Source: a virus
Taxonomy: Duplodnaviria > Heunggongvirae > Uroviricota > Caudoviricetes
IMG/VR virus record: IMGVR_UViG_3300030434_000006
Span: 955-64,954 of that record
DNA length: 64,000 nt
Direction: 5' to 3' (one strand)
Each line of letters opens with the position of its first letter. The stretch's first letter is position 1. Below the pieces are notes generated by a model. It was not told where the DNA came from. It saw nothing but the letters and a program-made list of their open reading frames with translations, and made no database searches. Of this stretch, positions 7,696 through 25,690 are shown one piece after another. The translations under genes and the position numbers were made by a program.

Positions 7696-7704
7696 ACCTC
7701 TCTA

Positions 7705-7759: not shown

Positions 7760-8077
7760 GTGACCGATGTAGAAAAAATGCTCGCGGTTTCGCTTCTCCT
7801 GTCTTTGCTGAGTGGCACAGGCGTTTTCCTGCTGGGAGTGCGCGAATACCGGATCCGACCAACTGTATTCAACTTTACTACTGAGCTTGTGCTGGCGCTG
7901 ATTACTGGCCTCACGGCCTATTTCTTTGCCCGCCAGCAGGGACTGGATGAAATCGTGATTTACCTCGCTGTGTTAGTTGCAAGCAACAACTGGCGAGAAC
8001 TCTCAACTGTATTTAAAGAACGACTCATTGCGGCAATAAACGGCGTATTTGGGTCAAAAGGAGGCTCCGGCCCATGA
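7760..8077 (+). CDS. holin-like membrane protein (P1 LydA-position)
   Basis: 105 aa, GTG start after the SD AAGGGGGG; three predicted TM segments and a charged C-terminus; first gene of an operon whose sizes parallel P1 lydA-lydB-hdf-darA-ddrA-ddrB. Confidence 0.45.
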   Translation: MTDVEKMLAVSLLLSLLSGTGVFLLGVREYRIRPTVFNFTTELVLALITGLTAYFFARQQGLDEIVIYLAVLVASNNWRELSTVFKERLIAAINGVFGSKGGSGP

Positions 8078-8529
8078 TTGATTACCAGAACCTGTTTATC
8101 ACAGCGATGGCGGCGGCGATGGTTGTCGATCGCTGCGCCTTTGCCCGTAAAAAAGTGTCCCTGCTGGGATGTGGTGTGGCTACCGTGCGCGGCAACGCGC
8201 TGGCATTCCCGGTCCGCCTGAGCATTGCCTGTGCGGGCAAACTCGCGGGAGCCAAAATTGAGTACTGGCTGCGCGACAGCAACGATCCGACAGTGGTTAT
8301 CTCCGGAAAACAGCGCACGCTGGACCTCTCACCAAAGGGTGTGAGCGAAGAGTTTCTGCTGATCGATACGCGTTATCTTGAACCGGGCGAGTGGTCACTG
8401 ACAGTGCGCGTTACCCACGGTAACAGCCGCCTGAATCCGCTTTACCGCATTTTTCCACTGCAGGATACCGTCACCAGAACCTACCAGCTGAGCAAATCAG
8501 AGGAGGGGGATTACCGTGTCGAATCCTAA
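8074..8529 (+). CDS. hypothetical protein (LydB-position)
   Basis: 151 aa; ATGA overlap with the holin-like gene. Confidence 0.3.
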   Translation: MIDYQNLFITAMAAAMVVDRCAFARKKVSLLGCGVATVRGNALAFPVRLSIACAGKLAGAKIEYWLRDSNDPTVVISGKQRTLDLSPKGVSEEFLLIDTRYLEPGEWSLTVRVTHGNSRLNPLYRIFPLQDTVTRTYQLSKSEEGDYRVES

Positions 8530-9133
8530 AACCTACGTTCTGCTGAGCTTTGACGAGCTCAACGAGAAGGGGCTGGCAAAGCTGAAAAAGGCAATCGCCA
8601 CCAGCGGCTTTGAAGTAGCCAAAATTACCAACGCCGGCGCAGCCCGGAAAAAGGATGGCGTACTCACTAAAACCTTTAGCCTCACCGGCATGGACGAGCA
8701 GGTCATGACCGTGCAGGTCAACGACAGCGGCGACATTTCCGGCCTGAAACTGAACGGTAAAAACGTGCCGTTTACCCACGTCACCACGCTGCCCGACCTG
8801 GGACGCCAGCTGGCCGCGTTATTTAAAAAAGGCTCGACGGCATTCCAGAAGGCGCTGGCGCGCAAGATGGCACGCGCCGCCGCCAGCAAGGACGACTCAC
8901 CGCAGCCAAAACGCGGAGTGAAATCGTCCGTACAGCTGCTGGCTGAAGTGCGCCAGCAGCGTGACGCGTACAAAGCAGGTATTGAGGAAACTCAGAAGAA
9001 GGCCGACCAGCTGACGCGGGATGCCGACGCGGCACAGAAAAACGCGGACAGCTTACAGACAGAGCTTAATCAGGAGCAGGCGATCACCCGCCAGCTGAAA
9101 GAGCAGATCGCCCAACTGGAAGAGGCAGCATGA
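8516..9133 (+). CDS. coiled-coil protein (Hdf-position in a dar-like operon)
   Basis: 205 aa; Q/A/E-rich predicted coiled-coil C-terminus. Confidence 0.3.
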   Translation: MSNPKTYVLLSFDELNEKGLAKLKKAIATSGFEVAKITNAGAARKKDGVLTKTFSLTGMDEQVMTVQVNDSGDISGLKLNGKNVPFTHVTTLPDLGRQLAALFKKGSTAFQKALARKMARAAASKDDSPQPKRGVKSSVQLLAEVRQQRDAYKAGIEETQKKADQLTRDADAAQKNADSLQTELNQEQAITRQLKEQIAQLEEAA

Positions 9134-11631
9134 TGAATGAGATTTTAAGCAATCGTATGGTGCTGGACTTCCAGAGCCGCACACCGGGCGCAGTGCTGGC
9201 GCAGGCAGTTTATGACGGCCTGATGACCGGCAGTAGCGCGGATATGATGCTGGAAAGCGCCACGATCGACGATATCGATCACACTTACCTGGGAAGTGAA
9301 AGCCTGGTGCCGGATGCGATGTTTGAAGCAATCAGCACTGAGCGCATGCGTCTGGCGCAAACCATGCGCGCCTTTGTGAAAGCCTTAAACCGTGGCCTGA
9401 ACGGGACCAACATCAGTGCCGGCACTGACGATGCTGGTGCGGATACGACCGGGCAGAAAACCGTGGGCGGCGCGGTGATTGGTAAAGTGCGCCGTGTGGC
9501 CAGCATACCGGTTATGAGTGCGCTGATCCCATTATCAGACGGGCAAAGCGTGTCGCTGGTGTTCCACTCTCCGACCGCTGATAACGGCAAAATCCGCAAT
9601 CAGGATACGCTGGTGGCGTTTCAGTTCCTGATCAACAAGCGCGATGTGACGCACATTGTGGCCCCGATCGGCGGACGGGATGTATCGCTGCAGCAGGTCA
9701 CGCAGGCGCTTTCTAACCTGATCGAGAAGAACACCGGCAAGTTCACAAAGCAGAAGGACGCACAGACGAAGCTGCGCGCCGAAGTGGAAACCACGCAAGC
9801 CGAAACGGACAAGCTGGCGGAGCAGCAGTCTGCACTGCTGGAGGTGGTGGATGCACAAACCGCGCGCGTGCAGATGCAGCAGGATAATGAGCAGACGCTG
9901 CGCGGCAAAGTCGCGGCACAGCGCCAGATTAATGCTGACCTTACCGGACAGCTGGCGGCGCTGCAGCAGGCGAAAGCCAGTGAGCCTGAGAGCACGGACA
10001 CTTTCAGCGATCGCACTATCCAGGTTAAAGCGCGCCTGAACATGGACGGACAGGCGACGCTGAGCAATGGCGCGACGGTCCGATATCACAGCTATGACCA
10101 TGACGGAGAGCTTAAAGGCAAAGTGATCATCATCGAAGCGGACGGGACCACGTTTGAAATGCCGTCCAAATCCAGCCAGGGCGCAGAGATGGGTAAAGCG
10201 GCTACCAAACTGCTGAAAGCCTACCGCACCGGCGCGGCGGAGCCATATCGCATTGCGGCAGGTGCGGCAGCGCCGGTAGAGCCAGAGCCAACGCCTGGCC
10301 AACGTAAGCTGTCAGCGCGTGCCACTGAAATGACCAAAGGCGAAGGTGCGGAGCGTGACGGGCGCCTGCTTATGTCTGTTGAGGGGCCAGAGGACTTCAT
10401 GCGTTATGCAGAGAAGGAGCTGGATAAAGATTTTACTAACTCTCAGACCGAAGAAGCAGGCGAGAAAGAGGGTGATATTGCGCTGTTCTATGGAGTGGAT
10501 CGTGGGGATAAATCGCTCTTTATGGCAGCCTGGAAGCAGCTCAAATCCGACTGGATGAATGGCGCTGAGTTACCTGTAAAAGAACCCGCACCACAGCCAC
10601 AACCTGAACCACAGCCAGAGCCACAACCACAACCACAGCCAGAGCCAGAGCCAGAGCCACAACCGGAACCAGTTACACCCGCAGCCGTCTGGCGCTATGC
10701 GCTGGTAAACCGGCCAGTGGGTATTGGCGCGGTACCGCCTGAATATGCTTCCGTTGCAGACCAGCCAGCAGAAGGCCAGCCATACAGCGGCTTTGCGCGT
10801 AACGGCATTATTTCCTACGACCGTCCACTTACTGACAAAGAGATTGCTGACTTTGAGCTGAAGCTGATCCCGACGCATGCGGATCTCGATGCGCTGGCCG
10901 TAACCGTGGCCGACAAGATGAGCGATTACTCCGCGCAGTATCTGGAAATGTCCGCAGAAGACCCGGACACCTATGCAAAACAGGTGCGTATGGTTGCCCG
11001 TAAAAACCTGACTGGCGTGGCCTACCCTGAAGGCGAAGACCTGACCTACTTCAAACAGGCCATTAATGCCAGATTGCAGACCCTGGCCGCAGGTGAGCCA
11101 AAGCAGGAAGAGACAGACGTGACTGACGACCGTGAAAACACTGACCCATTCTGGATGGCGGCGAAACGCCTGGGCGATCTCGTAGGCTGGGCGTCTGACC
11201 TGGTAAATGCCTGGGCCGAAGCGCTGGGTTATGGCAGTGAGCAGATCAAGCAGGCAGCGGACTACGTGGAAGCTAATCAGAGTCCTGAGTATCTGAAGGC
11301 AGCGGAGACCGCGATGATTACCGGCAAGCGTATTCCGCTGGTGGAGGAACTGAGCACAGGAGAGCCACAGCCAGAACCGCAGCCAGCACCGGAACCAGTG
11401 CCGGAAGCTGACACCGAAGCACAGAAGGCGATTGATTACCTCCAGGGACTGACCGCGCTCGATACCGACGATATGGACGTGATCCGCGCTGGGCGTAGCC
11501 AGGTCCGTGAAGCCATCGCAGCACTGACGGCCGCGGGCGTGTTCGATGAAAACGAGTCCCTGGTCAATGACGCCGTGCAGCACCTGAGCGATCTGCTGGT
11601 GGCCGTGCAGCGTAATGGGGTGGCCGCATGA
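9130..11631 (+). CDS. large internal-head-protein candidate (DarA-position) with PQPE linkers
   Basis: 833 aa; two proline-rich linkers (PQPEPQPEPQPQPQPEPEPEPQPEP and EPQPEPQPAPEPVPE); the size and order match P1 darA. Confidence 0.35.
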   Translation: MMNEILSNRMVLDFQSRTPGAVLAQAVYDGLMTGSSADMMLESATIDDIDHTYLGSESLVPDAMFEAISTERMRLAQTMRAFVKALNRGLNGTNISAGTDDAGADTTGQKTVGGAVIGKVRRVASIPVMSALIPLSDGQSVSLVFHSPTADNGKIRNQDTLVAFQFLINKRDVTHIVAPIGGRDVSLQQVTQALSNLIEKNTGKFTKQKDAQTKLRAEVETTQAETDKLAEQQSALLEVVDAQTARVQMQQDNEQTLRGKVAAQRQINADLTGQLAALQQAKASEPESTDTFSDRTIQVKARLNMDGQATLSNGATVRYHSYDHDGELKGKVIIIEADGTTFEMPSKSSQGAEMGKAATKLLKAYRTGAAEPYRIAAGAAAPVEPEPTPGQRKLSARATEMTKGEGAERDGRLLMSVEGPEDFMRYAEKELDKDFTNSQTEEAGEKEGDIALFYGVDRGDKSLFMAAWKQLKSDWMNGAELPVKEPAPQPQPEPQPEPQPQPQPEPEPEPQPEPVTPAAVWRYALVNRPVGIGAVPPEYASVADQPAEGQPYSGFARNGIISYDRPLTDKEIADFELKLIPTHADLDALAVTVADKMSDYSAQYLEMSAEDPDTYAKQVRMVARKNLTGVAYPEGEDLTYFKQAINARLQTLAAGEPKQEETDVTDDRENTDPFWMAAKRLGDLVGWASDLVNAWAEALGYGSEQIKQAADYVEANQSPEYLKAAETAMITGKRIPLVEELSTGEPQPEPQPAPEPVPEADTEAQKAIDYLQGLTALDTDDMDVIRAGRSQVREAIAALTAAGVFDENESLVNDAVQHLSDLLVAVQRNGVAA
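10590..10672 (+). repeat. tandem hexanucleotide repeat (CCACAG/CCAGAG/CCACAA)n encoding the PQPE linker
   Basis: about 14 near-identical 6-bp units read directly in the sequence. Confidence 0.8.
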
Positions 11632-12023
11632 GCCTGACCGCACTGCAAAAGCTGGACTTAGCCGACCAGCTGGACGAACTGATCATTAAAGCGCCGACCG
11701 TGAAGGGGCTGGACCTGCTGGATCTCAATGACCAGATGGAGGCGATCATGCTCCAGCTGGGTTATGGCGCTGCGCCAGCACCCGCCACCAGCGAACCGGC
11801 ACCCGCGCCGGTCACTGAGCCACAGCCGGATTCCGTGAAGGAAGATCAGCCCGTTCCCGAAGTGGTTACTGACTTTCTGGCCGGTAAGTTCACCAGCCAG
11901 GCGCAGCTGGATTTTGTTGAGACGCTGCGCCGTGTCGGGGACTACATCGGCGTTTATCTGGAGCTGGACGACGCGAGACAACAGACCGCCAGCTGGATAG
12001 CTGCCAGCGGCCTCGCTGCTTAA
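11628..12023 (+). CDS. hypothetical protein (DdrA-position)
   Basis: 131 aa; ATGA overlap with the previous gene; contains a PAPAPATSEPAPAPVTEPQP linker. Confidence 0.3.
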   Translation: MSLTALQKLDLADQLDELIIKAPTVKGLDLLDLNDQMEAIMLQLGYGAAPAPATSEPAPAPVTEPQPDSVKEDQPVPEVVTDFLAGKFTSQAQLDFVETLRRVGDYIGVYLELDDARQQTASWIAASGLAA

Positions 12024-12027
12024 TCAA

Positions 12028-12052
12028 CACCCCGTTTCGGCGGGGTTTTTTA
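12028..12052 (+). terminator. rho-independent terminator (possibly partial)
   Basis: ccccg-tttcgg-cgggg followed by T6. Confidence 0.55.
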
Positions 12053-12066
12053 TTCCCGGAATCATA

Positions 12067-13446
12067 ATGCTGAACGAGAAATTACGAAATCTGCTGAGCG
12101 ATGCTGGCAGCATATTTGCCCTGATTGGGCTGGTGGGCTCACTGCGCAAAGCGCAGACCACAACGGGGCGATCGTCATACGTCGTGACCGGTAAAGGGCA
12201 GGAAGTAAAGACGGCGTTTAAGGTGGTGGATGCGCGCCACCTGATTATCTCTAATAACCTCGACGGCACCATAAACCCGCTTTTCCCGGCTGAGCTGCAG
12301 CCACGCGACCGCACGCGCCTGACCAGTAAAGTGCAGGTCTCCAAAATCGCGGGCAACCTCCGACCGGCGAAGCTGACCGATTCAGGCATGAGCAGCCACG
12401 GCGCGCCAATCGTGGGCGCTGATAACGTGGTTGAGTCGGGCAATGGCCGCTCGATGGGGATCACCCGCGCTTATGAGCAGGGACAAGCCGACGAGTACCG
12501 GCAGTATCTGATCGACCACGCAAAAGACTACGGCCTGAAAGCGTCGGATATCGCGCAGATGGACATGCCGGTACTGGTGCGTGAGCGCATTACCGACGTT
12601 GACCGTGCGCAGTTTGCGAAAGACTCCAACCTCTCCGATTTGCAGGAAATGGCGGCGAGTGAGAAGGCCTTTGTCGATGCCGAAATGCTCGATGAGCGTC
12701 TGATGGCCATCTTCAATCCGTCCGACGACGGCAACCTTCTGGCACGCTCAAACGACGGCTTTATCCGGGCATTCATGAAAGAGATTGGCGACACAGCGAC
12801 CGCAGGCCTGCTCACCGAAGATGGGCGCCCGACGAAGCAGCTGATTGACCGTATGCAGAATGCGATCTTTGCCCGTGCCTACAAAGACGAGCGGCTGGTT
12901 AAGCTGGTATCCGAAGAGCCGGACCCGGAAATGCGCAATATCCTGACAGCGCTCAACACGGCGGCAAGCGAGTTTGCACAGATGCAGATGCTATCCGGCG
13001 ATGTTCACCGGCAGGCCGTCACCGGGCTGGTGGACGGGGTGCAGTCGGTGGATGGTCTCGATCAGCAGGCTATCGCCGCGTTGCAGGATGCTATCAAGCT
13101 GGTTCGCCAGGCTAAAGACAGCGGGCAGGCCATACAGGAAGTGCTGGCGCAACAGGGGCTGTTTGAGGAATCCAGTAAAGAGGCCGAAGCGCTGGCGCTG
13201 TTTATCGTGGCAAACAATCGCAGTGCGAAACGCATAGGGACCGCGTTTAAAAAGATGGCGCAGAAGATTAACGACGAGCTGTTACACCAGCAGCAGGCGC
13301 TGGGGGATATGTTCGGCGGCGGTGATCTGACGCTGACCGACGTCCTCACCGCTGTATCCGGGGAGATCGAAGAGGAGTTTGGCGAAGGTAAAGGCATAAA
13401 TTTTGCCATGTTCGAATCCGCAGCCGTACCTGAGAGCGTTTCGTAG
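12067..13446 (+). CDS. hypothetical protein (DdrB-position, last gene of the dar-like operon)
   Basis: 459 aa, acidic; no motif recognised. Confidence 0.3.
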   Translation: MLNEKLRNLLSDAGSIFALIGLVGSLRKAQTTTGRSSYVVTGKGQEVKTAFKVVDARHLIISNNLDGTINPLFPAELQPRDRTRLTSKVQVSKIAGNLRPAKLTDSGMSSHGAPIVGADNVVESGNGRSMGITRAYEQGQADEYRQYLIDHAKDYGLKASDIAQMDMPVLVRERITDVDRAQFAKDSNLSDLQEMAASEKAFVDAEMLDERLMAIFNPSDDGNLLARSNDGFIRAFMKEIGDTATAGLLTEDGRPTKQLIDRMQNAIFARAYKDERLVKLVSEEPDPEMRNILTALNTAASEFAQMQMLSGDVHRQAVTGLVDGVQSVDGLDQQAIAALQDAIKLVRQAKDSGQAIQEVLAQQGLFEESSKEAEALALFIVANNRSAKRIGTAFKKMAQKINDELLHQQQALGDMFGGGDLTLTDVLTAVSGEIEEEFGEGKGINFAMFESAAVPESVS

Positions 13447-13465
13447 TACCCCAGCATTTTTAATA

Positions 13466-13489
13466 TGGCCACGCAATGTGGCCTTTTTC
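13466..13489 (+). terminator. rho-independent terminator
   Basis: ggccac-gcaat-gtggcc followed by T5. Confidence 0.7.
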
Positions 13490-13497
13490 CCATCGGA

Positions 13498-13515
13498 AAT
13501 TACAAACTCCATACA
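13498..13515 (+). promoter_or_regulatory. late-operon conserved element AATTACAAACTCCATACA (copy 3)
   Basis: ends 36 nt before the endolysin ATG at 13552. Confidence 0.5.
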
Positions 13516-13551
13516 GTCAGGCTCTTCAACAACACAGAGAGCGGAACCATC

Positions 13552-14043
13552 ATGGACCAATCCCCGAACCGTAAAGCCTTTGGCGACATGCTGGCCTTTT
13601 CCGAAGGCACCAGTACACACCCGTTAACCCGTATGCGCGGCTACGACGTCATCGTGACCGGGCTGGGCGAAAAGCAGGGCGAAATCTTCACCGATTTCAG
13701 CGATCACCCGTTTGCACATCGTCAGGCAAAACAGATTAATCACAGCGGCCTGGCATCAACCGCAGCGGGCCGCTATCAGCAGCTTTACCGCTACTGGCCT
13801 GCCTACAAAAAGCAGCTGAGCCTGCCTGATTTTAGTCCCGCCTCACAGGAGCGATTACTCGATCAGCTGCTGAAAGAACAGGGTGCTTATGCCGACATTC
13901 TGGCTGGGCGGATCCGCACGGCGATCGGCAAAACCAACGATATCTGGGCATCGCTCACCGGTTCTCCTTATGGTCAGAAAACGCACAAGATTGATGTGCT
14001 GCTGACGGCCTATGTGAACGCTGGTGGCACAGTTACCGACTAA
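13552..14043 (+). CDS. endolysin, lambda R-type lytic transglycosylase (GH104)
   Basis: NRKAFGDMLAFSEGT, GYDVIV, FTDFSDHP, AAGRYQ, LSLPDFSP.SQ, IWASL and GGTV align residue-by-residue with lambda R; internal ATG at 13552 chosen (SD AGAGAG). Confidence 0.85.
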   Translation: MDQSPNRKAFGDMLAFSEGTSTHPLTRMRGYDVIVTGLGEKQGEIFTDFSDHPFAHRQAKQINHSGLASTAAGRYQQLYRYWPAYKKQLSLPDFSPASQERLLDQLLKEQGAYADILAGRIRTAIGKTNDIWASLTGSPYGQKTHKIDVLLTAYVNAGGTVTD

Positions 14044-14930: not shown

Positions 14931-15293
14931 GCTTTTGAGTCCTTGATATTTGGGACATGGACATGCCTTAATTCCTTGCTACTGAGAATTAAGAGATGAT
15001 GTCCTCCACGAGACAGCAGGTGCAATGCCTGAGTCAGTGGTTTAAAAGCAACTTCCGACCAAAGAAGTTGTACGGCACAACGCCGGTGTGGTCTCGACAA
15101 CCACACAAAGTTGTTTAAAAATCGTCTGCGCTAACAGGCGATTTTTTTTCGTCCTCACATTCAGTCGCCAAACTGAATTTGAGCGCGGATAATAAACGCG
15201 ATCCGATAAAGGATCAACACTCAGTTTTTTCCTAATTTTTAGTTTTGACTAAAACGTGCCCCAGTTTTCAGGGCACGATTTCTTTTCCCCTTC

Positions 15294-16295
15294 TTATCGT
15301 GTGTTAATCCACAGCAGCGGTGCTGAGTCCACGGCTGGCGGGCGCGTCTCTGGTAATGTGTGCTGGTGGGCGGTTCCGATCGGCAGCGTGGCCGTCGCAT
15401 TTGTACCGATTGATTCCAGCATTGCCGCGACGATCTGCGCATCTTCCGGCGTGTCCATCCGGCATAGTGCCGCCTGCTGGGCTTTACTTAAAAAAAGCGG
15501 CATGTTAGCCAGCGCATCCTTCATAATCCGGCGGCGCGCCTTTGCAACAGTACCTGCACTCTCGAGCATTAGCTGCGCGTTGCGCAGACGTTCCTCCAGC
15601 TCCAGACGCTTTCCATGCTCGATGTGAAGCGCAGATTCCATCAGCGAAGAATCCGCAGACTCTAGCATTGCCGCCTGGCCGCGCAGGGTTTCAAAATGCT
15701 GGATAATGTCGGCCGCCTGGTTCTCCGAATACCCCTTTTCAATCAGGCCCGCTTGCATAGCGTCGGCGCGTTCGCTGGCCGACTCCAGCAGCAGAGCTGG
15801 GTGATCCTGACTGATATAGTTCGGATTGGTCACATAATCGAAGCCGTGGAAGCTGGTCACTTTGGAAATGGCGTTATCATCACCACCTGTCGCCCACGAC
15901 CAGCCACCAGCGCGGGAACGGTTCATGCCGTCAACGATGTTGCCAGGCTCAGTGTCCAGAATCTCCTGAACGTGAGTCACAATGCCGTTATCGTCCACGC
16001 TGACATCCAGCGTACGGTTAGACGGTACGTTTTCCAGCGTCACCGGTTTCCCATCAACCATGACAACCGCAAATTCCGGCAGATTGAGCCGCCCGGTCTT
16101 AGCGTAATAGGCGGCGCGACGTCCGTGGCCGTAATATCCGAACATTTCCCCCAGCTGGATTCTCTCCAGAGTTTCGGGGCTGGCGAACGTCTCGCGGACA
16201 GAGCGCAGCAGGTAGTTGCGATCATTCTGTGGAGTAAATCGACGAATTTTATCAATCAATGAAAAACGATCCGTCACCGTACGGAGTGCTTCCAT
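15294..16295 (-). CDS. head morphogenesis protein (P1 Pro-position; protease/scaffold candidate)
   Basis: 333 aa; adjacent to the 565-aa head gene and to darB as in P1 darB-prt-pro; preceded by a late element. Confidence 0.3.
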   Translation of the reverse strand: MEALRTVTDRFSLIDKIRRFTPQNDRNYLLRSVRETFASPETLERIQLGEMFGYYGHGRRAAYYAKTGRLNLPEFAVVMVDGKPVTLENVPSNRTLDVSVDDNGIVTHVQEILDTEPGNIVDGMNRSRAGGWSWATGGDDNAISKVTSFHGFDYVTNPNYISQDHPALLLESASERADAMQAGLIEKGYSENQAADIIQHFETLRGQAAMLESADSSLMESALHIEHGKRLELEERLRNAQLMLESAGTVAKARRRIMKDALANMPLFLSKAQQAALCRMDTPEDAQIVAAMLESIGTNATATLPIGTAHQHTLPETRPPAVDSAPLLWINTR

Positions 16296-16367
16296 AAATA
16301 CCTCATATTCACAGGGTTATGCCCCGCAGAGCGGCGGCAGCGCTGGCGATAGCCTGCGTGAAAAGAT

Positions 16368-16385: not shown

Positions 16386-16426
16386 TATCGGGGTAGCGAT
16401 TCTTCGATTATCAGTGGATCTAATAA

Positions 16427-16442
16427 CCAGTGGATAATTTCA
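16427..16442 (-). promoter_or_regulatory. TGAAATTATCCACTGG element (family copy d)
   Basis: 15/16 identical to the copies at 36835 and 57099; contains a DnaA-box-like TTATCCACT. Confidence 0.4.
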
Positions 16443-16504
16443 TATTAGAAATATTGAATTTATCCGCGCCGGGGATATAGTGTGCGCGCCACTGTAAAAC
16501 AGTG

Positions 16505-16722
16505 GTCGGGATTGGAACCCCGAACGAATGTACGAGGAGGCACTTAGTGCCTCCGGCGCTACCACGTCTGGAGTTTGCCAGATGTTTCAATGGTGGCGTT
16601 GGCGGGGCTACCTTCGGGTAGGCCGGTCTCCTCGTACGCCGGTAGTTCCAACCCTGTCAACGTCACCACCCGGAGATTGGAACCTCCCGTAGTGACGCTT
16701 CCTTTTGTACGAGGAGCACTCC
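16505..16722 (+). promoter_or_regulatory. repeat-rich leader with a W/R-rich small upstream ORF
   Basis: three copies (two direct, one inverted) of GATTGGAACC..GTACGAGGAG; the SD of the gene at 16723 lies inside the third copy and is complementary to the inverted copy CTCCTCGTAC; uORF at 16582..16692 begins MFQWWRWRGYLRV. Confidence 0.4.
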
Positions 16723-16980
16723 ATGCCTGATATCCCTTATACGCCGTCCCAGGCAGTGCTTAGGTTCGCCAATGCCATGCTTGCCATAAGCCAGACAGAC
16801 AGTAGCATCTGTCGCCGTGCCAAATGGGGTGATAAACCTATTCACGTATTTACGCAGGCCGACTCAGACAGCCAGATGCAATTTATATTCATGGGCGAGT
16901 CCGGCGCGTTATCAATTTATGATCCAACACCTGAAGATATTTTGTCAGCCGACTGGCAGGTTATTTCGCTTCTGCACTGA
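16723..16980 (+). CDS. small protein, possible DUF2829/Tad2-like fold
   Basis: 85 aa from ATG 16723 (SD GAGGAG); CRRAKWGDKPIHVF and DILSADWQVI resemble DUF2829 motifs KVARKGWNGKG and DLLAEDWEIV (from memory). Confidence 0.3.
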   Translation: MPDIPYTPSQAVLRFANAMLAISQTDSSICRRAKWGDKPIHVFTQADSDSQMQFIFMGESGALSIYDPTPEDILSADWQVISLLH

Positions 16981-17043: not shown

Positions 17044-18741
17044 TTATTTGTCTGGTGAGGTTACAAAACGAGCAAAGGCTATGAGTTCTTCACGGGACCA
17101 GCTGGCCGGATCACTGCCGTCAGGAGCAGATTCATTCATCATGCCGCCGCCGCCCTCATCCTCCTGAGCGTCCGCTTTCTTCCTGCTCTTCTCAAACTCC
17201 GCTAGCATTTTGTCGAGCGTGCCGCCGTCCATCTTCAGCTGATCACTGAACAGGTAGCGCATGAATGTGTCGTTCTCCGCCAGCTTGTTGTTGGCCTGCA
17301 GCGCATCCATGACCTGCACCATCAGGGTAATGAAGTTGGCGCGGGCGTCCATTTCGCGGCTTTCTTCTTCCTGAATGGCGGTGTTCATCGAGTTGAACTG
17401 AACTACATAGGGCCGATCCTTAACCGGGTAAACCTTGCCGTATTTGAACGCCAGGTGAATATCGATCAGCCGGTAAATCATTTCCTGCGCGCCCTGTCGC
17501 AGCCACTGCGCCCGGAGTGCCGCCTGTATAGCCGTCTGAATCCAGCCGCCTTCACCCAGCCCGCCCGCCATCTGATCGGCCCACCCCAGCATAGTCGAGT
17601 CGATACCGAGCGCAGCGCACAGCTGGCGCAGGTGAAACATCACGTCCTCAATGCCGGTAATGTCCGCGGGTATCGACTGCGTGTCGATCGTAATGCCGTT
17701 TTTACCGTCTCCCATCACCGGGATCACATGGTTCATCACGGTTGGCATAGTGTTGCCGTTAACCGCTTTTTTCTGGAGTGCTTCGCCGTGGCGCTTGAGC
17801 GTCTGCGACACAGTGCGGGTGTAGTTCGCACCGACAACCGGATCGAGTGAGTTGGTTGTCAGGGCAATCAGGCGGTCAATTTTGGCGGCGTTGTAGCGCG
17901 TTGCCTTCAGCGCATTCAGCGCGCCGACCAGATTCAGGAAAGGCTCATAGGCATGCGCCAGGAAGCTAGTGCCGTAATTCTGCGTCTCCGCAACCTCCTT
18001 GTCCTCTTCCTCTGATAGCAGAGAGTAACCACGATTGCCGGACGTCACGGGCTGAACGTTGCGCGTCGGGGTCCAGTACGGATTTTTCATCGGGACCAGA
18101 GACCACGGCGTAGATAGTGTGCGGGTATGGGTGTCTGGCGAAAGCACATAATCCCCGCCGAAGCCCACCAGCTGATCGCCTTTGTAAAACTCCTGAATGA
18201 AGTAGGGCAACGAGTAATAGCTATTTTCCAGGCTGGTGATCCCTTTCCCTGAGCGGGCATAAGGGCGCACATAGGACACGCCGAAAATCGCCATTGTCAT
18301 AGCCAGCGACGGCAGGTGTCGGTTAATCATCGCGCCCAAATCATCCTGTAGCTCTTTGGCCCGCGCCGCGCCTTCTGCGTCGGACGGGTCAACCGGCACA
18401 ATAGAGAACGCCAGCCCGGTTTTTTTGTCCGGCGCGAGTGCGTGGCCAATGTGGATATTCAGAGCGGCTGAGCACGTTGGGCTATTCGCCATTTCTTCCA
18501 GAATCGCATAGCGCTGCAGCCTGTCCAGCGGCAGCTCCGCGCCCAGGAAAAGACTGTCGCCGGCGGAAGTCATTTCCCCGGCATTTCCCTCTTTGTAGGC
18601 CATTGCCGCCAGCCCGGAGCGCGAGACGACCACGTTCTGTCCGTTGGTCCATGCGAGGCTTTGCGGTGCTTCTGCTGCCGCGCCCCGGAATGCCTGCCTC
18701 AATGCGCTTAAAACAGACAGTGCCTTATTTTTAGTAGCCAA
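17044..18741 (-). CDS. portal protein candidate (or major head protein)
   Basis: 565 aa minus-strand structural gene between the 333-aa head gene and darB (P1 prt position); no motif certain. Confidence 0.35.
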   Translation of the reverse strand: MATKNKALSVLSALRQAFRGAAAEAPQSLAWTNGQNVVVSRSGLAAMAYKEGNAGEMTSAGDSLFLGAELPLDRLQRYAILEEMANSPTCSAALNIHIGHALAPDKKTGLAFSIVPVDPSDAEGAARAKELQDDLGAMINRHLPSLAMTMAIFGVSYVRPYARSGKGITSLENSYYSLPYFIQEFYKGDQLVGFGGDYVLSPDTHTRTLSTPWSLVPMKNPYWTPTRNVQPVTSGNRGYSLLSEEEDKEVAETQNYGTSFLAHAYEPFLNLVGALNALKATRYNAAKIDRLIALTTNSLDPVVGANYTRTVSQTLKRHGEALQKKAVNGNTMPTVMNHVIPVMGDGKNGITIDTQSIPADITGIEDVMFHLRQLCAALGIDSTMLGWADQMAGGLGEGGWIQTAIQAALRAQWLRQGAQEMIYRLIDIHLAFKYGKVYPVKDRPYVVQFNSMNTAIQEEESREMDARANFITLMVQVMDALQANNKLAENDTFMRYLFSDQLKMDGGTLDKMLAEFEKSRKKADAQEDEGGGGMMNESAPDGSDPASWSREELIAFARFVTSPDK

Positions 18742-18820
18742 AGTTATACGCCCTATTTAATAAACCTTTAGAATCAGATAAAGCATATTCGCTTTATGCA
18801 ATCTGAGGAAAAGTTACACA

Positions 18821-21800
18821 GTGGAAAATCCAGTAAACAGGGCTGTGCAGGAGGCGGGATCGGTTGAGGAACTGATCCGGCTGGTCATGCGCCTGCACAA
18901 ACAGCGAACCGTAGTAGCGTTTGGCGTGACCAAGCGTGAAGGCGTGAGCCTGCAGCGTGAGCGCCGGAATGCAAACGACAATGCGATCGAGCTGCTTAAC
19001 TCACTGCCCCAGGGCTTCGACGGCAATAAACTGACCGACGATCAGCGCCGGGTATTGGCGGGCTACAGCGGCGAGGGCGGTCTGGAAGGCAGCGGCGGCA
19101 GTCAGTATGAGTACTACACACCGCCATTCATGGCGGAAGGTATCTGGGATCTGTTTTCCGATTACGGTATTACCAGCGGTCACATGCTGGAGCCGTCTGC
19201 CGGTACTGGCGTTTTTCAGGAGACAAAACCGGCTGGCGCCATGATGACGTCGGCCGAGATTTCGGACACGTCGGGACGCATTAACCAGCTGCTGCACCCG
19301 GAGGACGATGTTCGCCTGGGCGCGTTTGAGAAGCTGGCGGCATCAGTGCCGGATAACAGCTATGACCATGCCGTAGGCAATGTGCCGTTTGGCGACTCGC
19401 GCACTGGCTTTGCCGAGCTCGATCCCGCTTACCGCGATGAAACTAACGTCGGCCACTACTTTGTGATGCGCACCATCGACAAGGTGAAGTATGGCGGGCT
19501 GGTGGTGCTGGTGGTGCCGAACGGCATGACCGACGGCGGCGGCAACAACAAAAAGCTGCGCGATCGCGTTTCCCGTGTGGCGGAGTTCCTGGGCGCGCAC
19601 CGCATGCCGTCCGGCACGTTTGCCGAAAGCGGTACCGCAACGGTGGTGGATGTGTGGGTACTGCGAAAGCATACCGAAGCGCTGATGCAGCTGGTGCATG
19701 ATAGCGATGAACAGTCGCTTGAGGCGGCAAGCGTGCTATGGCCAACGTTCATCCGGGGCAAATGGTTCGAAACCGAAGGCCGTCGCTTTGTTCACGGTGA
19801 AACTGAGCGATCTGACTTCAATAACATCCTGGTGGTGAAGAAAGATGGCCAGCTGACCAATGCGGCAATGAAGGCCGCGCTGTCGCGCCGCTTTGATAGC
19901 CGTATCGACTGGGATCGGCTGGGTACGCCTGCCGCTGTCTGGCAGTCGCCGGTTGAAGGTGATAAGCGCCTCATGGCTGGCGTCTGGCACACCTATGACG
20001 GCACACGTTTTATCAAAGACGCCACCACCGCATCGAGCGGGATCGACGCGGAGCGGTTCGGCGCGGCGACGTTTGGCGACCTGCAGACAAAAACGCGCAC
20101 CATCAACGGCATGCTGTCGCTGGACAGCCGCGCCCTGTATGCCGCCAGCATGGAATACCCGCAGCTGTTTGACGATCGCATTCACGCCGCGATCCGTTTC
20201 GCTATGCAGCAGAAGCCCGGCCACCGATGGCGCGTTATGCGTGCCTCGATTATCGGTCTGCGCATCAATGACGCGCTGAATACGCAGATGCTGGGCGGCG
20301 ACGCCAGCGGCATCATTGCCGACGCTGCCCGCCTGGTGAGCGAAGAGGTGGGCCAGTACGGCACGCCGAAAGGCCTGAAACTGGCGGGGCTGTCTGACGC
20401 CAGCGCAAAGGGCTGGCTGAGTTTTCAGGCCAACGTCAGCCGTGAAGGCGATCTGTCGGCGCTGCTGAACGGCACCATCGACCGTAGCGAGGCTGTGGCA
20501 GTTGATTTCGCCAGCCCGGAGCAGGTGGTATCACATCTTTTCAGCGACGTTGATCTGGTTCCGGTTGCACTGGCCGCCTTCCGCGCCGCGTTTACCGGCC
20601 AGCTGCCGGAGGATGACGACGCGCTGCTGGCGCACCTGGCGACCTTCCCGGAGATCGCCCTCGATGGCAACGGCAACGTCATGCCACTGGCCCGCGCCAC
20701 CAGCGGGAACGTGCGCGGCAAAGTCTCCCGCCTGGCGGGGCTGATTGACGACGCGCCGGATGGCCCGGTAAAGGCGAACTATGTCCGCCAGCTGGAAGCC
20801 ATTAACGAGAAGCGCAATCACACGCCGATCGAAGACATTACGGTTAACCTCAATGCCCGCTGGCTGGACCGCCGCCTGATCAAAGAGTTTCTGATCGAGC
20901 AGGGCTTTGATGACTTCAAATACACGCAGGACCTGGAAAACGACAACGGTTATCTGACCGCAGAAGACAATTACGCAGGCAAAGACGGCGTTTTCTCTGG
21001 CTACCAGGTTCGCTCTGTCAACAGCAAAGGCGGCGTGACCGAGTTCAAGCGCGCCAGCTACAAAGACGGCTTCTACAATCAGCTGGAAAACTACCTGAAT
21101 GGCGTGAAGCCACGCGGGATAAATGCCAATGCGTACCTGAAGCGCATCAGCGATCTGGAGTCACATTTCAACGACTGGCTGCGCACGCACCCGGATGTGG
21201 AAACCGTCGTCAGCGACTACAACGACGCCTTTAACGGCTACGTTCCGTTTGAGCACTCGTCTGCCTCGCTGCAGCTGCAGCAGATCAGCGGCAAACGTAT
21301 TCCTCTGAGCTATCAGAATGCGGAAGTCCGGCGCCTGTCGGAAGACGGCCGCGGCATCATGGGCTTTGGCACGGGTCTGGGTAAAACCACCACGGCGCTG
21401 GCGCTGGAAGCCTATAACTACGAGGTGGGGCGCAGTAAGCGAACTGTCTACGTTGTGCCAAAAGCGGTCCTCCAGAACTGGTATCACGAAGCCCAGGGCT
21501 TCTACAGCGCCGAGGCCTTCCAGAACATTCTGTTTGTCGGGCTGGATGAAGTGCGCGGCGAAGATGGCCAGATCATGCAGGCCCAGGAGCGCGACGAGAA
21601 CAACGAGCCGAAACTGGACAAAGACGGCCAGCCGGTGATGCGTAATGTCGTGAAAGAGTCCGCGGCCGCAACCGTGCTTGAGCGCATGAATATGATCCCG
21701 GTTTCCAACTACCGCGCCGTGGTGATGACCAAAGAGCAGTTTGGCGATATCCCGATGCGCCCGGAGACAATCGAGGAAAACTCCAGCCAAGCGGTCTTTA

Positions 21801-24800
21801 ACCAGATTGAGAATGGCCGCACGGACCTGATGAAGTCCACGCACCGCGCCGCCACGTCCCGTAACAAACTCCGCGACAAAGCCGCCGATACCGGCACGAA
21901 GAAAAAGAGCCAGATCCCGTACTTTGAGGATATGCACTTTGACAGCGTGATCGCAGACGAAGGGCATAACTACCGCAACTCGCACAGCGCCGGACGTGAA
22001 GCAGGCCAGCTGGCCTACCTGCCTAATCCGTCTGTCTCCAAGATTGCCCGCGATATGGCCGTAAAAAGCCAGTACATGATGAAAAAGTACAACGGCCGTG
22101 GCGTCGTTATGCTGACCGCCACGCCGCTGGTCAACTCCCCGATTGACGCCTTTAACATGCTGTCACACGTCGTGTCGCTGGATGAATGGAAGGCGATGGG
22201 GATTCTGACGCCGGATGACTTTGTGCGGGTGTTCGGTGAAACCGAATCCGTGACGGTGCAGAAGATTTCAGGCGAACTGGAGGACAAGCAGGGGCTGGTG
22301 GGCTTCAAAAACCTGGACGGTCTGCGCGGCATCTTCCATCGCTGGACGACGCTCAAGTCTGCTGCTGACGTGAAAGACAGCGTGAAGATACCAGGCCTCG
22401 ACGAGAAAACCGTGGGTGTGCCGATGACCCGCGACCAGAAGGAGCTTTATGAAGAGCTGCGCCAGCGCGCCAGCCGTATCGGGCAGCAGGAATCCCTGCA
22501 GGACAATGGCGACGGTACTATGTCCATCGTACAGAACGACGACGATTTCATTTTCTCTGTTATCCGCGACATGGATAAGGTGGTTATCGATCCGGACCTG
22601 TACCGCTCTGCTATAACGTTCCGCTTCCGTGAAGAGGACACTGAGCTGGCGAAACAGGTGGCGCGGGCGCTGCCGGGTGAGGCTGGTGGCCAGCTGCTTG
22701 CCGGTGATGATGAAGAGACCGCTGAGGACGCGGAAACCGGTCTAACCGACACGCGCACCAGTAAGGTAGTCAAGACCACGCTGAAGAATCGCGGGGGCGT
22801 CGTGGAGCTGGTGGTGAGCGACACGCTGGAGCAGCAGGTACTGGATGCGATCGCCGCTGCCGGTATCAGCATGGAAAACGTCTCGCACCCGGTACCGCCG
22901 AAGTATGCCGCGCTGATTGAAAACCTGAAGGCAGGCCTGCCAGACGGTAAGCAGATCATTTTCATGGATGAAAAGTCCCAGCACAACAAGCTGCGCCGCA
23001 TCATCGCCAGCGCCCTGGGCCTGGCGGAGCAGCAGATAGGCATCATCAACGCCACAACAGTCAGCAAAGCGTCTGGCGTGAAGTTGAAGCCCGTGAAGAA
23101 ACCGGTTGAGCCGGTGGAAAAAGCGGACGGTAGCTTTAAGGAAGGCGCATGGGATAAGTACTATCAGGATCTGGCGCGCTATGAGGATTATCAGGCCGCG
23201 CAGAGTGACGCCTCGCTGGCCGGTATGGAAGGGATCGCCGCCGACTACAACGAAGGCCGCACGCCAATCATCATCTGCAACAAAAAGGCCGAAGTGGGGA
23301 TCAACCTGCACAAAGGCACCGCCGATACGCACCATCTGACACTCCCCTGGACGCCAGCCAGTATCGACCAGCGTAACGGACGCGGCGCCCGCGTGGGCTC
23401 CGAGCGCGACACCATGCGCGTGCATTACTACTGTGGCAAAGGGTCATTTGACGAGTTCCGTCTGGAGACGCTGCAGCGCAAGAAAAACTGGATCAACGAC
23501 GTCATGAAATCCGACGTATCCAGCATTAAAAACGGCGATGTGGAGTCGAAAGAAGAGCAAAGCCTGCTGCTGGCCGCTAATCCGGAAGAGCGCCGCGCCC
23601 GCGTCGATGCACAGCTGAAAGCGAAGCGTGAAGCCGACCGTCAGCAGGCCGAGCGCGAAGCTGCTGCCGCGCTGGATATCTATCTGAAGGCAAGCGTCGC
23701 CGCTGCTACACCTGTTGAAGTGCTTGAAGACAATATTACCAAGCTGTCTGCTGCCTTTGATGCGATCAACGGCGAGATTGCTGGCTATCGCGAGGACGTC
23801 ACCGAAGCGGAAGCAGCCTATAACCTTGAAGTTGAGAAGTATGGCAAACGGTCAGCAGATCAGTGGCGCGGTCAGGACCGTCGCGTAGCGCGTGCTGCAC
23901 TCCGTGATGGCCTGGCGAAGCAGAAGAAGCTGGAGCAGGAGCTGGGCGGCGCACGCAAGGCGCTGACTCGCTCCAAAAGTGCATCCAGCACCATCAAGCG
24001 CTCCCGCGGGGAAGTCGAACGCGCAATTAAGTCCGGCGCGCTGGAAGTCGATCCGGACGTGCTGCGCGCCCCGGAGCAGTACATGAAACTGCCCGATGGT
24101 CAGCTGGTGCGTATTGGCGCGACCTATGAAATCTGGCTCAACGATGACCGTGAAGAAAAGGGCGTATTCCAGATCCGCAAATTCTTCCCGGAGAAAAATA
24201 CGGTTGAGGTTGAGCTGATCCACAAGCCGCTGCGCAGCTATACCGGTCCGAATGTCGGTGGCTTTGCTGAAATGCCTTCTGCGCTGGTGGGCGACCGCGT
24301 GGATATCACCAGTGACCAGGCAAAAGCGCTTCAGACAGCAGCGAAGGGCATCGAGCCGATAGACCTGGCGGACAGACTGAGCCGTGCTGACTTTTACGCG
24401 GCCATTCACGCTGGCGTGCTGAATGTGCGCACGGACGGATGGCTGTACCGCGACAGCGACGGCAGGCTGAAACTGGCATACCTCAGCGGCACGATCAGCG
24501 CCAGCGAAGAGCGACCGGCTGAAACGTGGCTGTACCCGGACCACACCGACGAGCAGTTGAAGCGTGAGCTTTATCAGTACAGCGTGGACAACAACATCTA
24601 CAGCGCGCAGGGCTTCTTTAAGGCAATGTTTGGCCGTAACTACGACACAGCATTGCAGGCTTACGGGAAGCAGGCGGGCATGGCGGACGTGGTTAAAGTC
24701 TTTAACAGACTAGTGGCCGAGTTCGAAGCGAATGACCCCAAAAAGCGGTCAGTGACCGGCGCGAATGATGAAGAGGCTCATGCCGCCTTCCTGGATTCGG

Positions 24801-25690
24801 CGCAGGACCGTTACTACTGGAGCAACGTTATCAGCCTTCGTCAGTTCCGTAACGGCATGGAGGGCTTCTCTAACCGTCATGAGTACGAAGCGCTATTCGA
24901 ACAACTGCGTAACGAGATGGCCGACGGCAAGGTGCAGGCTGTCAAATCACTGACAGAACAGTATGCCGCCGCCGCGCTGCAGCAGTTCCGCCAGATGAGC
25001 GAGAGTGATAGCCAGGCCGGTATTGCCGTGCTGCTGGTGAAGTCTAAGTTTGATGCTTACAGTGACGTTGACCGGGCAGCAACCGTAACGGAGTCACCGG
25101 CAGCAATTTATCTGCGCGCCGGCGTTTCACTGGGTGCGCTCGATGACGCCGGAATCAACGTCGAAACGTTCGCCTCATCCAGCGCTATTAAGCGGCAGCT
25201 AACGATGGTTTATCTGTGGCTGGATCGAATGGAAAAAGGCGATTACCGCGAGTACGCGACGACGTGGGACGACTATAAAGCGCTGATGACCGGCAAGCTG
25301 TCGCCTGACGTTGTGGAGGCCCGCCGTGAAGAAACCAACAGACTCGCGGCGGCCGCGGCAACGACCGTGCGTACCGTTCAGGCAGAGAAGCAGTCCGATG
25401 GCTTCCTGGTCATGACAAACGAGCAGGAGCTGGTGGCTTCGCGCAAGTGGAAGAACCGCACCTTTAAAATCGACTTCCCGGCTGGTGGCGCTTATGTCCT
25501 GACGGACACCAGTGATAAGCCGGTGCTTAAGCGCAAAGCGGTGCGTGATCTCATCAAAGAGAAGTACGGCGCGAAATTCTGGAATTTTGAAGAAGATCCG
25601 GTAGCCGGAAACGAGTTTACACAAGCCGCCTGGCTTATCCCTTCCTCCCACGATCTCAATGCGTTACGCAACGATATTGTAAACGCATAA
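18821..25690 (+). CDS. DarB-like antirestriction protein: N6-adenine methyltransferase fused to SNF2-type helicase
   Basis: 2289 aa; MTase motif I LEPSAGTGVF and motif IV GNVPFG; helicase Walker A GFGTGLGKTTTA, DEGH box IADEGHNYRN, motif VI QRNGRGARVG; size and domain order match P1 DarB (2255 aa). Confidence 0.7.
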   Translation: MENPVNRAVQEAGSVEELIRLVMRLHKQRTVVAFGVTKREGVSLQRERRNANDNAIELLNSLPQGFDGNKLTDDQRRVLAGYSGEGGLEGSGGSQYEYYTPPFMAEGIWDLFSDYGITSGHMLEPSAGTGVFQETKPAGAMMTSAEISDTSGRINQLLHPEDDVRLGAFEKLAASVPDNSYDHAVGNVPFGDSRTGFAELDPAYRDETNVGHYFVMRTIDKVKYGGLVVLVVPNGMTDGGGNNKKLRDRVSRVAEFLGAHRMPSGTFAESGTATVVDVWVLRKHTEALMQLVHDSDEQSLEAASVLWPTFIRGKWFETEGRRFVHGETERSDFNNILVVKKDGQLTNAAMKAALSRRFDSRIDWDRLGTPAAVWQSPVEGDKRLMAGVWHTYDGTRFIKDATTASSGIDAERFGAATFGDLQTKTRTINGMLSLDSRALYAASMEYPQLFDDRIHAAIRFAMQQKPGHRWRVMRASIIGLRINDALNTQMLGGDASGIIADAARLVSEEVGQYGTPKGLKLAGLSDASAKGWLSFQANVSREGDLSALLNGTIDRSEAVAVDFASPEQVVSHLFSDVDLVPVALAAFRAAFTGQLPEDDDALLAHLATFPEIALDGNGNVMPLARATSGNVRGKVSRLAGLIDDAPDGPVKANYVRQLEAINEKRNHTPIEDITVNLNARWLDRRLIKEFLIEQGFDDFKYTQDLENDNGYLTAEDNYAGKDGVFSGYQVRSVNSKGGVTEFKRASYKDGFYNQLENYLNGVKPRGINANAYLKRISDLESHFNDWLRTHPDVETVVSDYNDAFNGYVPFEHSSASLQLQQISGKRIPLSYQNAEVRRLSEDGRGIMGFGTGLGKTTTALALEAYNYEVGRSKRTVYVVPKAVLQNWYHEAQGFYSAEAFQNILFVGLDEVRGEDGQIMQAQERDENNEPKLDKDGQPVMRNVVKESAAATVLERMNMIPVSNYRAVVMTKEQFGDIPMRPETIEENSSQAVFNQIENGRTDLMKSTHRAATSRNKLRDKAADTGTKKKSQIPYFEDMHFDSVIADEGHNYRNSHSAGREAGQLAYLPNPSVSKIARDMAVKSQYMMKKYNGRGVVMLTATPLVNSPIDAFNMLSHVVSLDEWKAMGILTPDDFVRVFGETESVTVQKISGELEDKQGLVGFKNLDGLRGIFHRWTTLKSAADVKDSVKIPGLDEKTVGVPMTRDQKELYEELRQRASRIGQQESLQDNGDGTMSIVQNDDDFIFSVIRDMDKVVIDPDLYRSAITFRFREEDTELAKQVARALPGEAGGQLLAGDDEETAEDAETGLTDTRTSKVVKTTLKNRGGVVELVVSDTLEQQVLDAIAAAGISMENVSHPVPPKYAALIENLKAGLPDGKQIIFMDEKSQHNKLRRIIASALGLAEQQIGIINATTVSKASGVKLKPVKKPVEPVEKADGSFKEGAWDKYYQDLARYEDYQAAQSDASLAGMEGIAADYNEGRTPIIICNKKAEVGINLHKGTADTHHLTLPWTPASIDQRNGRGARVGSERDTMRVHYYCGKGSFDEFRLETLQRKKNWINDVMKSDVSSIKNGDVESKEEQSLLLAANPEERRARVDAQLKAKREADRQQAEREAAAALDIYLKASVAAATPVEVLEDNITKLSAAFDAINGEIAGYREDVTEAEAAYNLEVEKYGKRSADQWRGQDRRVARAALRDGLAKQKKLEQELGGARKALTRSKSASSTIKRSRGEVERAIKSGALEVDPDVLRAPEQYMKLPDGQLVRIGATYEIWLNDDREEKGVFQIRKFFPEKNTVEVELIHKPLRSYTGPNVGGFAEMPSALVGDRVDITSDQAKALQTAAKGIEPIDLADRLSRADFYAAIHAGVLNVRTDGWLYRDSDGRLKLAYLSGTISASEERPAETWLYPDHTDEQLKRELYQYSVDNNIYSAQGFFKAMFGRNYDTALQAYGKQAGMADVVKVFNRLVAEFEANDPKKRSVTGANDEEAHAAFLDSAQDRYYWSNVISLRQFRNGMEGFSNRHEYEALFEQLRNEMADGKVQAVKSLTEQYAAAALQQFRQMSESDSQAGIAVLLVKSKFDAYSDVDRAATVTESPAAIYLRAGVSLGALDDAGINVETFASSSAIKRQLTMVYLWLDRMEKGDYREYATTWDDYKALMTGKLSPDVVEARREETNRLAAAAATTVRTVQAEKQSDGFLVMTNEQELVASRKWKNRTFKIDFPAGGAYVLTDTSDKPVLKRKAVRDLIKEKYGAKFWNFEEDPVAGNEFTQAAWLIPSSHDLNALRNDIVNA

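Follow-up and report, generated by a model that had tools for sequence, protein, structure and literature searches.

A Dar gene set of the P1/D6 type with an expanded DarA in a probable Pantoea phage-plasmid

Background

The head of phage P1 carries the Dar (defence against restriction) proteins, which are ejected together with the DNA (PMC12810830, PMC9024508). This work describes the corresponding gene set, and in particular an expanded form of its protein DarA, in a 64,000-nucleotide stretch of a virus of the Caudoviricetes (IMG/VR record IMGVR_UViG_3300030434_000006, positions 955 to 64,954), which is referred to below as the window. In P1, a 2026 cryo-electron microscopy study showed that residues 70-382 of DarA bind the inner capsid together with Hdf at 55 penton-hexon junctions, and that residues 383-639 are flexible, are not seen in the map and have no assigned function; the Hdf-DarA pairs are gone from the heads after DNA ejection (PMC12810830). 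During head maturation DarA is trimmed by Pro, and both DarA and Hdf are required if the head is to form normally and all other Dar proteins are to be packaged (PMC12810830). The functional data on the system come from the type I systems EcoA, EcoB and EcoK of E. coli alone (PMC12810830).

A wider frame is given by the polyvalent proteins of Iyer et al. 2017 (PMC5512222), in which several domains are joined in one polypeptide that enters the cell along with the DNA of the invading element; DarA-N, DdrB-ParB, the methylase-helicase dyad and the 2H phosphoesterase are named among their phage-type components. The paper also identifies the C-terminal half of P1 DdrB as a metallopeptidase.

The Dar gene set

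The open reading frames (ORFs) of the window were compared by BLASTP with the annotated proteins of P1 (NC_005856) and D6 (NC_050154; also MF356679). Homologs of lydA, lydB and all six Dar genes were found in the P1/D6 order, with lydA-lydB-hdf-darA-ddrA-ddrB as one series and darB-ulx divergent from prt (Table 1). For the six virion Dar proteins the E values against P1 and D6 range from 2e-29 down to 0, and the Pfam families LydB, DarA_N (in both hdf and darA), DarA_C and ddrB-ParB are matched above their curated cut-offs. The lydA homolog also matches P1 LydC.

The initial annotation had seen here a complete Dar-like set, consisting of an ORF series of 105/151/205/833/131/459 amino acids (aa) at 7760-13446 (+) and a 2289-aa ORF at 18821-25690 (+). 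These reading frames are exactly as it described them, and comparison with the P1 proteins by BLAST and by profile hidden Markov models (HMMs) was positive for every gene. Its likening of the size series to that of P1 holds in part, since P1 has 109/147/203/639/121/995 aa and the closer series is that of D6, with 108/148/206/645/124/454 aa. As to completeness, all six Dar genes are there, with the qualification that ulx falls beyond 25690, the end of the region first delimited. It follows darB directly, which is also its place in P1 and D6, and it completes the six Dar components that PMC12810830 lists for P1.

The 2289-aa protein had been described as carrying methyltransferase and helicase motifs like those of P1 DarB, and this is borne out: motif I (LEPSAGTGVF), motif IV (GNVPFG), the Walker A sequence GTGLGKTT and DEGH are near-identical to P1 DarB, and Pfam finds N6_Mtase, SNF2-rel_dom, ResIII and Helicase_C. 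Identity is 43.5% to P1 DarB over aa 3-1949 and 53% to D6 DarB over the full length, and tblastn with the protein gave matches in 132 phage records, led by D6 and P1. Identity is 45-82% in the methyltransferase and helicase parts, as against just 15-35% to P1 and D6 in aa 1600-2289 (window 23600-25690). No Pfam domain was found in the C-terminal approximately 700 residues, of which aa 1950-2289 are unalignable to P1 DarB; this part may be a partner- or capsid-specific packaging region.

The ddrB homolog is of a short form. An N-terminal ParB domain of the DdrB type is present. The zincin-like metallopeptidase that makes up the C-terminal half in P1 (aa ~450-995) is missing, and the 63% identity to P1 DdrB is confined to aa 10-444 of the 995 residues of the latter. 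D6 DdrB is likewise short.

D6 is the closest characterised phage. Identity to it is 45-77% for all eight proteins, its DarB aligns over the full length and it also has a RepL-like gene downstream of pro; it differs in that its DarA (645 aa) has neither of the two extra modules described below nor (XP)n tracts of four or more repeats, and in that prt and pro are adjacent. With P1 the eight homologs (lydA, lydB and the six Dar genes), their order, the position of the lydA...ddrB operon behind a promoter of late type, the domains and the DarB catalytic motifs are shared. The differences from P1 are the lower identity, a DarA of 833 versus 639 aa (+194), a DdrB of 459 versus 995 aa, and a rearranged region between the two operons, which in the window has no IS1, ssb or isaA/B and carries a c4/Tad2-like cassette between pro and prt.

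Table 1. Position of the Dar genes, of the parts of DarA and of associated elements in the window.
Feature	Coordinates	Strand	Remarks
Intrinsic terminator	7666..7695	+	ends tail-fibre operon, 5' boundary of the lydA-ddrB unit; stem-loop ACAGCGCTTCCGGGCGCTGT, then T-run
Late-promoter-like element AAATTACAG-ACTCCG-TACCCT (AAATTACAG-N6-TACCCT)	7704..7724	+	36 nucleotides (nt) upstream of lydA
lydA homolog (holin), 105 aa	7760..8077	+	BLASTP 45% D6 (6e-20), 35% P1 (1e-15)
lydB homolog (holin antagonist), 151 aa	8074..8529	+	Pfam LydB 78.8 bits (cut-off 28); 49% D6, 35% P1
hdf homolog, 205 aa	8516..9133	+	Pfam DarA_N 51.9 bits; 52% D6, 37% P1
darA homolog, expanded, 833 aa	9130..11631	+	Pfam DarA_N 128.3 bits, DarA_C 46.7 bits (cut-off 27 each); BLASTP
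DarA module 1, aa 390-482 (93 aa; ~80-aa domain)	10297..10575	+	four closest plasmids without it
DarA linker 1, (PQ/PE)n	10576..10680	+	TRF 10591-10661, period 6, 11.8 copies
DarA module 2, aa 672-744 (~73 aa)	11143..11361	+	extra segment of the Pantoea lineage; alignment A1
DarA linker 2, (PE/PQ)n	11362..11406	+	hexanucleotide repeat, TRF 11368-11406
ddrA homolog, 131 aa	11628..12023	+	41% P1 (8e-34), 37% D6
ddrB homolog, short form, 459 aa	12067..13446	+	Pfam ddrB-ParB (PF18763) 141 bits; 77% D6 (454 aa)
RepL-like lytic replication protein, 296 aa	14040-14930	-	downstream of pro; 31% D6 RepL, E 4e-16, weak HTH_36
pro homolog (head-processing)	15294..16295	-	59% D6, 45% P1; context gene, not a Dar protein
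prt homolog (portal)	17044..18741	-	divergent from darB as in P1; 64% D6, 50% P1; context gene
Second promoter/operator-like motif TATTTAATAAACCTTTAGAAT	18754..18774	+	47 nt upstream of darB
darB homolog, 2289 aa	18821..25690	+	N6-adenine methyltransferase, SNF2/SF2 helicase, divergent C-terminal region
ulx homolog, sixth Dar component, 142 aa	25721..26149	+	65% D6 (2e-69), 46% P1 (3e-41)

Replicon and relatives

The window matches non-mobilizable plasmids of approximately 90-95 kb of Pantoea agglomerans and P. eucalypti, for example NZ_CP134741.1, NZ_CP141613.1, NZ_CP134736.1 and NZ_CP045723.1. The match covers 97% of the region, with a nucleotide identity of 90-91%. These plasmids encode portal, head-processing and tail genes. 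Megablast of the window against phage genomes gave essentially no match, the relatives being deposited as plasmids. An identity of about 91% in DNA to plasmids with portal, head and tail genes leads us to read the window as a P1/D6-like phage-plasmid of Pantoea.

The plasmids share the gene set, including the 2289-aa DarB, ulx (annotated 'olxA'), ddrA and the Tad2-like ORF described below, and all six Dar components, ulx and ddrA included, were found in every close relative examined. The differences are a DarA of 729-743 aa without module 1, other lengths of both linkers, a long DdrB (970 aa) in one of them and variable accessory genes between ddrB and lyz.

Taken from homology, gene order and relatives, the region very probably carries a complete P1/D6-type Dar system in a P1-like phage-plasmid of Pantoea. 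The gene set is a further member of a known system, as is expected in a phage-plasmid of this kind, and its DarA is an altered form of a known protein. It could be argued that the set is kept in Pantoea mainly for capsid morphogenesis and lysis timing, with no antirestriction, and that DarB is a general DNA-modification or remodelling enzyme; the restriction of the functional data to E. coli type I systems and the unlikeness of the DarB C-terminus and of the DdrB architecture to P1 would both fit. We hold this to be improbable, as the six components are intact and present in every close relative examined, ulx and ddrA have no known morphogenetic role, the catalytic motifs of DarB are preserved, and an ORF of anti-defence type, the Tad2-like one, lies in the same region.

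A further plasmid, CP060164.1, labelled as Acinetobacter venetianus, matches the window with 86% coverage and 84.5% identity, which equals the match of Pantoea sp. PSNIH1 pPSP-26e. Either it represents a host of another order or the assembly is mislabelled or contaminated.

Architecture of DarA and its linkers

Window DarA was aligned with those of four close Pantoea plasmids, Leclercia, D6 and P1 (alignment A1). From the N-terminus it consists of a propeptide-like region, the DarA_N/helical/penton-binding part (aa ~63-381), a short linker, module 1, linker 1, the DarA_C region, module 2, linker 2 and a conserved C-tail. The N-terminal approximately 380 aa are 40% identical to P1 and 47% to D6, and the C-tail, i.e. 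the last 87 aa, is 60% identical to P1. Canonical DarA, as surveyed in 78 homologs from Escherichia, Salmonella, Citrobacter, Klebsiella, Enterobacter and Leclercia, has 620-665 aa and DarA_N and DarA_C alone. The window protein departs from this by its length and its two extra modules, and its expansion is therefore unusual.

Module 2 is absent from DarA of P1, D6 and Leclercia; by tblastn it occurs in just six plasmids, all of this lineage, and it matches no Pfam family. A segment related to it comes after module 1 in P0003, which is, like P0001, a DarA homolog that also contains module 1.

Linkers of proline-glutamine and proline-glutamate dipeptides, encoded by tandem hexanucleotides, had been ascribed to both the 833-aa and the 131-aa protein. 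In DarA the two tracts are there (aa 485-514 and 745-759). The 131-aa DdrA has a proline-rich stretch, yet no tandem hexanucleotide repeat in its gene (11628-12023; TRF, score of at least 30). Comparison of the lengths across relatives bears out the suggestion, also made from the repeats, that these tracts are prone to slippage and length polymorphism: in the window and four relatives linker 1 measures 30, 36, 22, 22 and 26 aa and linker 2 15, 21, 23, ~29 and 21 aa, and every change is in whole dipeptide steps, in proteins otherwise 91-94% identical (~90% in DNA). Most likely the linkers act as flexible tethers and, in addition, as substrates of recombination or slippage.

Module 1

Plasmids with and without module 1 are mostly 90-99% identical in the DarA flanks. 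The DNA borders of the module are GAGCCAGAGCCA upstream and a long CCA-GAG/CCA-CAG array downstream, so that both junctions fall in linker-coding repeat. In P0001 (847 aa) the module is at the same site and shows 65% identity, compared with 63-68% in the neighbouring segments. Having diverged like its neighbours there, the module appears more likely to have been lost or replaced in the close relatives than to have been gained recently in the window.

When 1.84 billion representatives were scanned exhaustively with HMMER, just 18 relatives of module 1 came up; a word-indexed search with module 1 alone gave no match. The family has a clear conserved pattern, with members 25-65% identical (alignment A3), and it occurs in three settings: inside DarA homologs (P0001 and P0003), at the N-terminus of proteins of approximately 360 aa, whose partner domain matches no Pfam family, and as free-standing proteins of 81-97 aa. 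The contigs of three free-standing members show either long arrays of co-directional small ORFs of phage type, in which no known domain occurs, or a region resembling a prophage, the latter with LexA-type and helix-turn-helix (HTH) repressors.

Sequence searches of Pfam, PHROG and PDB with module 1 returned just noise. A confident AlphaFold (AF2) model made with 10 homologs (pLDDT 81.7, pTM 0.76) has a beta-beta-alpha-beta-beta-alpha fold. Foldseek gave no significant neighbour of this model either in PDB (best E 0.13, to generic ACT/PII/ferredoxin-like folds) or in BFVD (best E 3.9e-3, to uncharacterised proteins). A DNA mimic of the Ocr/ArdA type was considered and rejected, the family being merely mildly acidic (isoelectric point 4.7-5.8, with one member at 8.8).

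The junctions in CCA-GAG/CCA-CAG repeats and the patchy distribution could suggest that module 1 is a neutral passenger, a fragment caught by illegitimate recombination in the repeat-rich linker. This is very unlikely in our view, since the module is well folded in the model, keeps its conserved residues across so diverse a family and stands in frame in at least four different DarA proteins, those of the window, P0001, P0003 and Pantoea sp. CCBC3-3-1.

An Acb1 domain in a related DarA

Beyond the close lineage the sole plasmid match to module 1 is NZ_CP034366.1 of Pantoea sp. CCBC3-3-1. Its DarA homolog (1038 aa; 3439-6555 of the locus) is a chain of at least four modules bounded by proline linkers, in which the module 1 homolog occupies another slot, just ahead of the conserved C-tail, and aa 689-828 are an Acb1 anti-CBASS domain (PF23474, E 2e-22, 79.9 bits, cut-off 27). 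In the Pfam scan window DarA had no match to PF23474. Acb1 is known from phage T4 as an anti-CBASS 2H phosphodiesterase (PMC9117128), which is free-standing, cytoplasmic and early, with no fusion to a head protein described; in NZ_CP034366.1 it is a module of DarA. The CCBC3-3-1 protein would be a head-anchored, pre-packaged anti-CBASS nuclease. PMC5512222 describes fusions of 2H to MuF or portal domains. Set against the polyvalent proteins, taken as those with at least two effector domains, window DarA has several linker-bounded modules, none with an assigned activity, and its relative carries Acb1.

Proposed mechanism

By analogy with P1, Hdf and DarA would be placed on the inner surface of the procapsid (55 pairs per head in P1), the N-terminus of DarA would be cut back by Pro, and DdrA, DdrB, DarB and Ulx would then be recruited into the head. 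At infection all Dar proteins would leave with the DNA, the DarB methyltransferase-helicase would act in cis on the incoming molecule, and the set would jointly shield it from type I restriction.

All module and linker variation of DarA falls in the half that matches the flexible residues 383-639 of P1, i.e. the part not seen in the P1 map is where this lineage gains, loses and moves modules. We suggest that the conserved N-terminal part of DarA is the capsid anchor, as established for P1, and that the C-terminal half would be a tethered cargo arm, whose domains would be exchanged at the repeat-encoded linkers and co-injected. DarA thus conceived probably delivers swappable cargo, and the modules would probably enter the cell at approximately 55 copies per virion with anti-defence roles. 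The full form of the proposal is tentative and less likely than not: the C-terminal half would be a plug-and-play delivery arm working via the linkers and bringing in about 55 copies per virion, module 1 would found a new anti-defence family, free or tethered to DarA, and the CCBC3-3-1 protein would be the first pre-packaged anti-CBASS nuclease. For module swapping on a DarA scaffold, repeat linkers of the PQ/PE type and the module 1 family, no description was found in the searchable literature, the supplementary architecture lists of PMC5512222 not included.

Alternatively, the modules and linkers could be structural, as in-head spacers or interaction surfaces that tune head size, DNA packing or Dar recruitment. 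In its favour, P1 depends on DarA and Hdf for normal head formation and for bringing the other Dar proteins into the head (PMC12810830), module 2 is fixed throughout the Pantoea lineage and module 1 has no similarity to known anti-defence proteins. We consider a structural role rather unlikely, because module 1 is dispensable in four plasmids with DarA flanks mostly 90-99% identical, varies in position between DarA proteins and is also found free-standing outside DarA, and because the equivalent slot in a relative holds the Acb1 enzyme.

Several points weigh against a Dar system of the P1 type with DarA as a carrier of cargo. Identity to P1 is just 35-63%, and neither the DarA modules nor the C-terminal approximately 700 aa of DarB have a counterpart in P1. 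DdrB is without the metallopeptidase half of P1, so its processing and packaging may differ. The fusion of Acb1 to DarA is found in one plasmid in PLSDB, which is different from the window, and, module 1 having no neighbour in family, structure or fold, it is its context that speaks for an anti-defence role.

The useful part of this locus is the natural variation of DarA, as the Dar set itself adds little. That the DarA C-terminus carries cargo is a concrete, testable idea, for which the module 1 family offers a candidate anti-defence module and the linkers offer natural length variants for effects of tether length. It could also inform the engineering of P1-type phagemid vectors, in which proteins might be loaded into the head as DarA fusions.

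Promoters and recurrent motifs

A late element had been placed ahead of the lydA series. A promoter-like element is indeed there (Table 1), as a variant of this lineage and not as the P1 consensus AAGTGAYTT-N4-TANNNT. It resembles P1 LPdar (AAGTTACTT-TGCA-TACCAT); from the P1 consensus it differs in box and spacing (AAATTACAG-N6 versus AAGTGAYTT-N4). In the Pantoea plasmids, and even in that of Leclercia, which is more distant, it is kept amid diverging flanks; the terminator at 7666-7695 is also kept in relatives. Fifteen matches to the element were counted in the window versus 6.3 expected, a number that no shuffle reached, and copies with at most one mismatch are placed 30-55 nt ahead of lyz (13497), of pro (16366, on the minus strand) and of pacA (36956), whose operons are of the kind with late promoters in P1. 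We read AAATTACAG-N6-TACCCT as the late promoter of the lineage. With such an element ahead of lydA, the lydA-lydB-hdf-darA-ddrA-ddrB operon is probably driven by it, and darB-ulx, divergent from prt, is a separate unit. The P1 consensus itself (AAGTGACTT, up to 2 mismatches, N3-5, TANNNT) was searched for and discarded, with 6 matches versus 5.4 expected and none upstream of lydA.

The motif ahead of darB belongs to a second class, distinct from the late-promoter-like one. Its 21-nt pattern AAATTANNAAACCYTTAGAWT has 6 matches in the window versus 0.01 expected, at 18754-18774, 26457-26477, 34678-34698 (upstream of the lpa homolog), 45570-45590 (-), 57131-57151 (-) and 59375-59395 (-). As darB is preceded by a motif class that it has in common with lpa, darB-ulx may be under a control other than the late promoter.

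A third motif, CCAGTGGWTAAT, is enriched in the window, with 21 matches versus 6.3 expected and no shuffle reaching 21. Examples are at 16422-16438, 36830-36846, 59339-59355 and 57099-57110. It often forms overlapping inverted pairs in intergenic positions, among them one directly ahead of the c4 cassette and one upstream of pacA, and is a candidate repressor operator.

Genes between the Dar units and other observations

Between the two Dar units lie genes for a lysozyme, the RepL-like protein, Pro and Prt. In the related plasmids the annotation of the RepL-like ORF goes no further than hypothetical protein. Where ddrB meets the lysozyme gene (window 13446-13552), the relatives have a hotspot for accessory genes and the window has nothing inserted: one plasmid carries there an ImmA/IrrE peptidase, a thymidylate synthase, a restriction endonuclease and an alpha/beta hydrolase, and others carry a 569-aa ORF, a Vat acetyltransferase, or the long 970-aa DdrB with a 100-aa ORF.

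An immI-like cassette is found at 16400-16980 (+), between pro and prt, which adjoin in P1 and D6. It contains a C4 antisense RNA (RF01695) at 16586-16673 (88 nt, 81.8 bits versus a gathering score of 45), whose loop CTCCTCGTAC and GTTCCAA element are complementary, over 7 and 10 nt, to paired sites (GTACGAGGAG) on both sides, upstream at 16512-18 and 16530-39 and downstream at 16677-83 and 16707-16. On the downstream side the complementary site takes in the Shine-Dalgarno sequence of an ORF starting at ATG 16723 (16705/16723-16980), which matches Tad2 (PF11195, 31.5 bits versus a cut-off of 25), the family of Thoeris anti-defence 2, and which lies inside the region of the initial annotation. 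In relatives this ORF is annotated by RefSeq as 'MW1434 family type I TA system toxin'. From these elements the cassette looks like translational control of an anti-defence gene by c4 RNA, in replacement of icd/ant of P1.

Further downstream, at 30161-30221 (+), there is an Rfam tRNA match of 61 nt (47.4 bits), at which ARAGORN makes no call; the tRNA here could be truncated or otherwise unusual. In D6, tRNA genes are present in the corresponding region of the genome.

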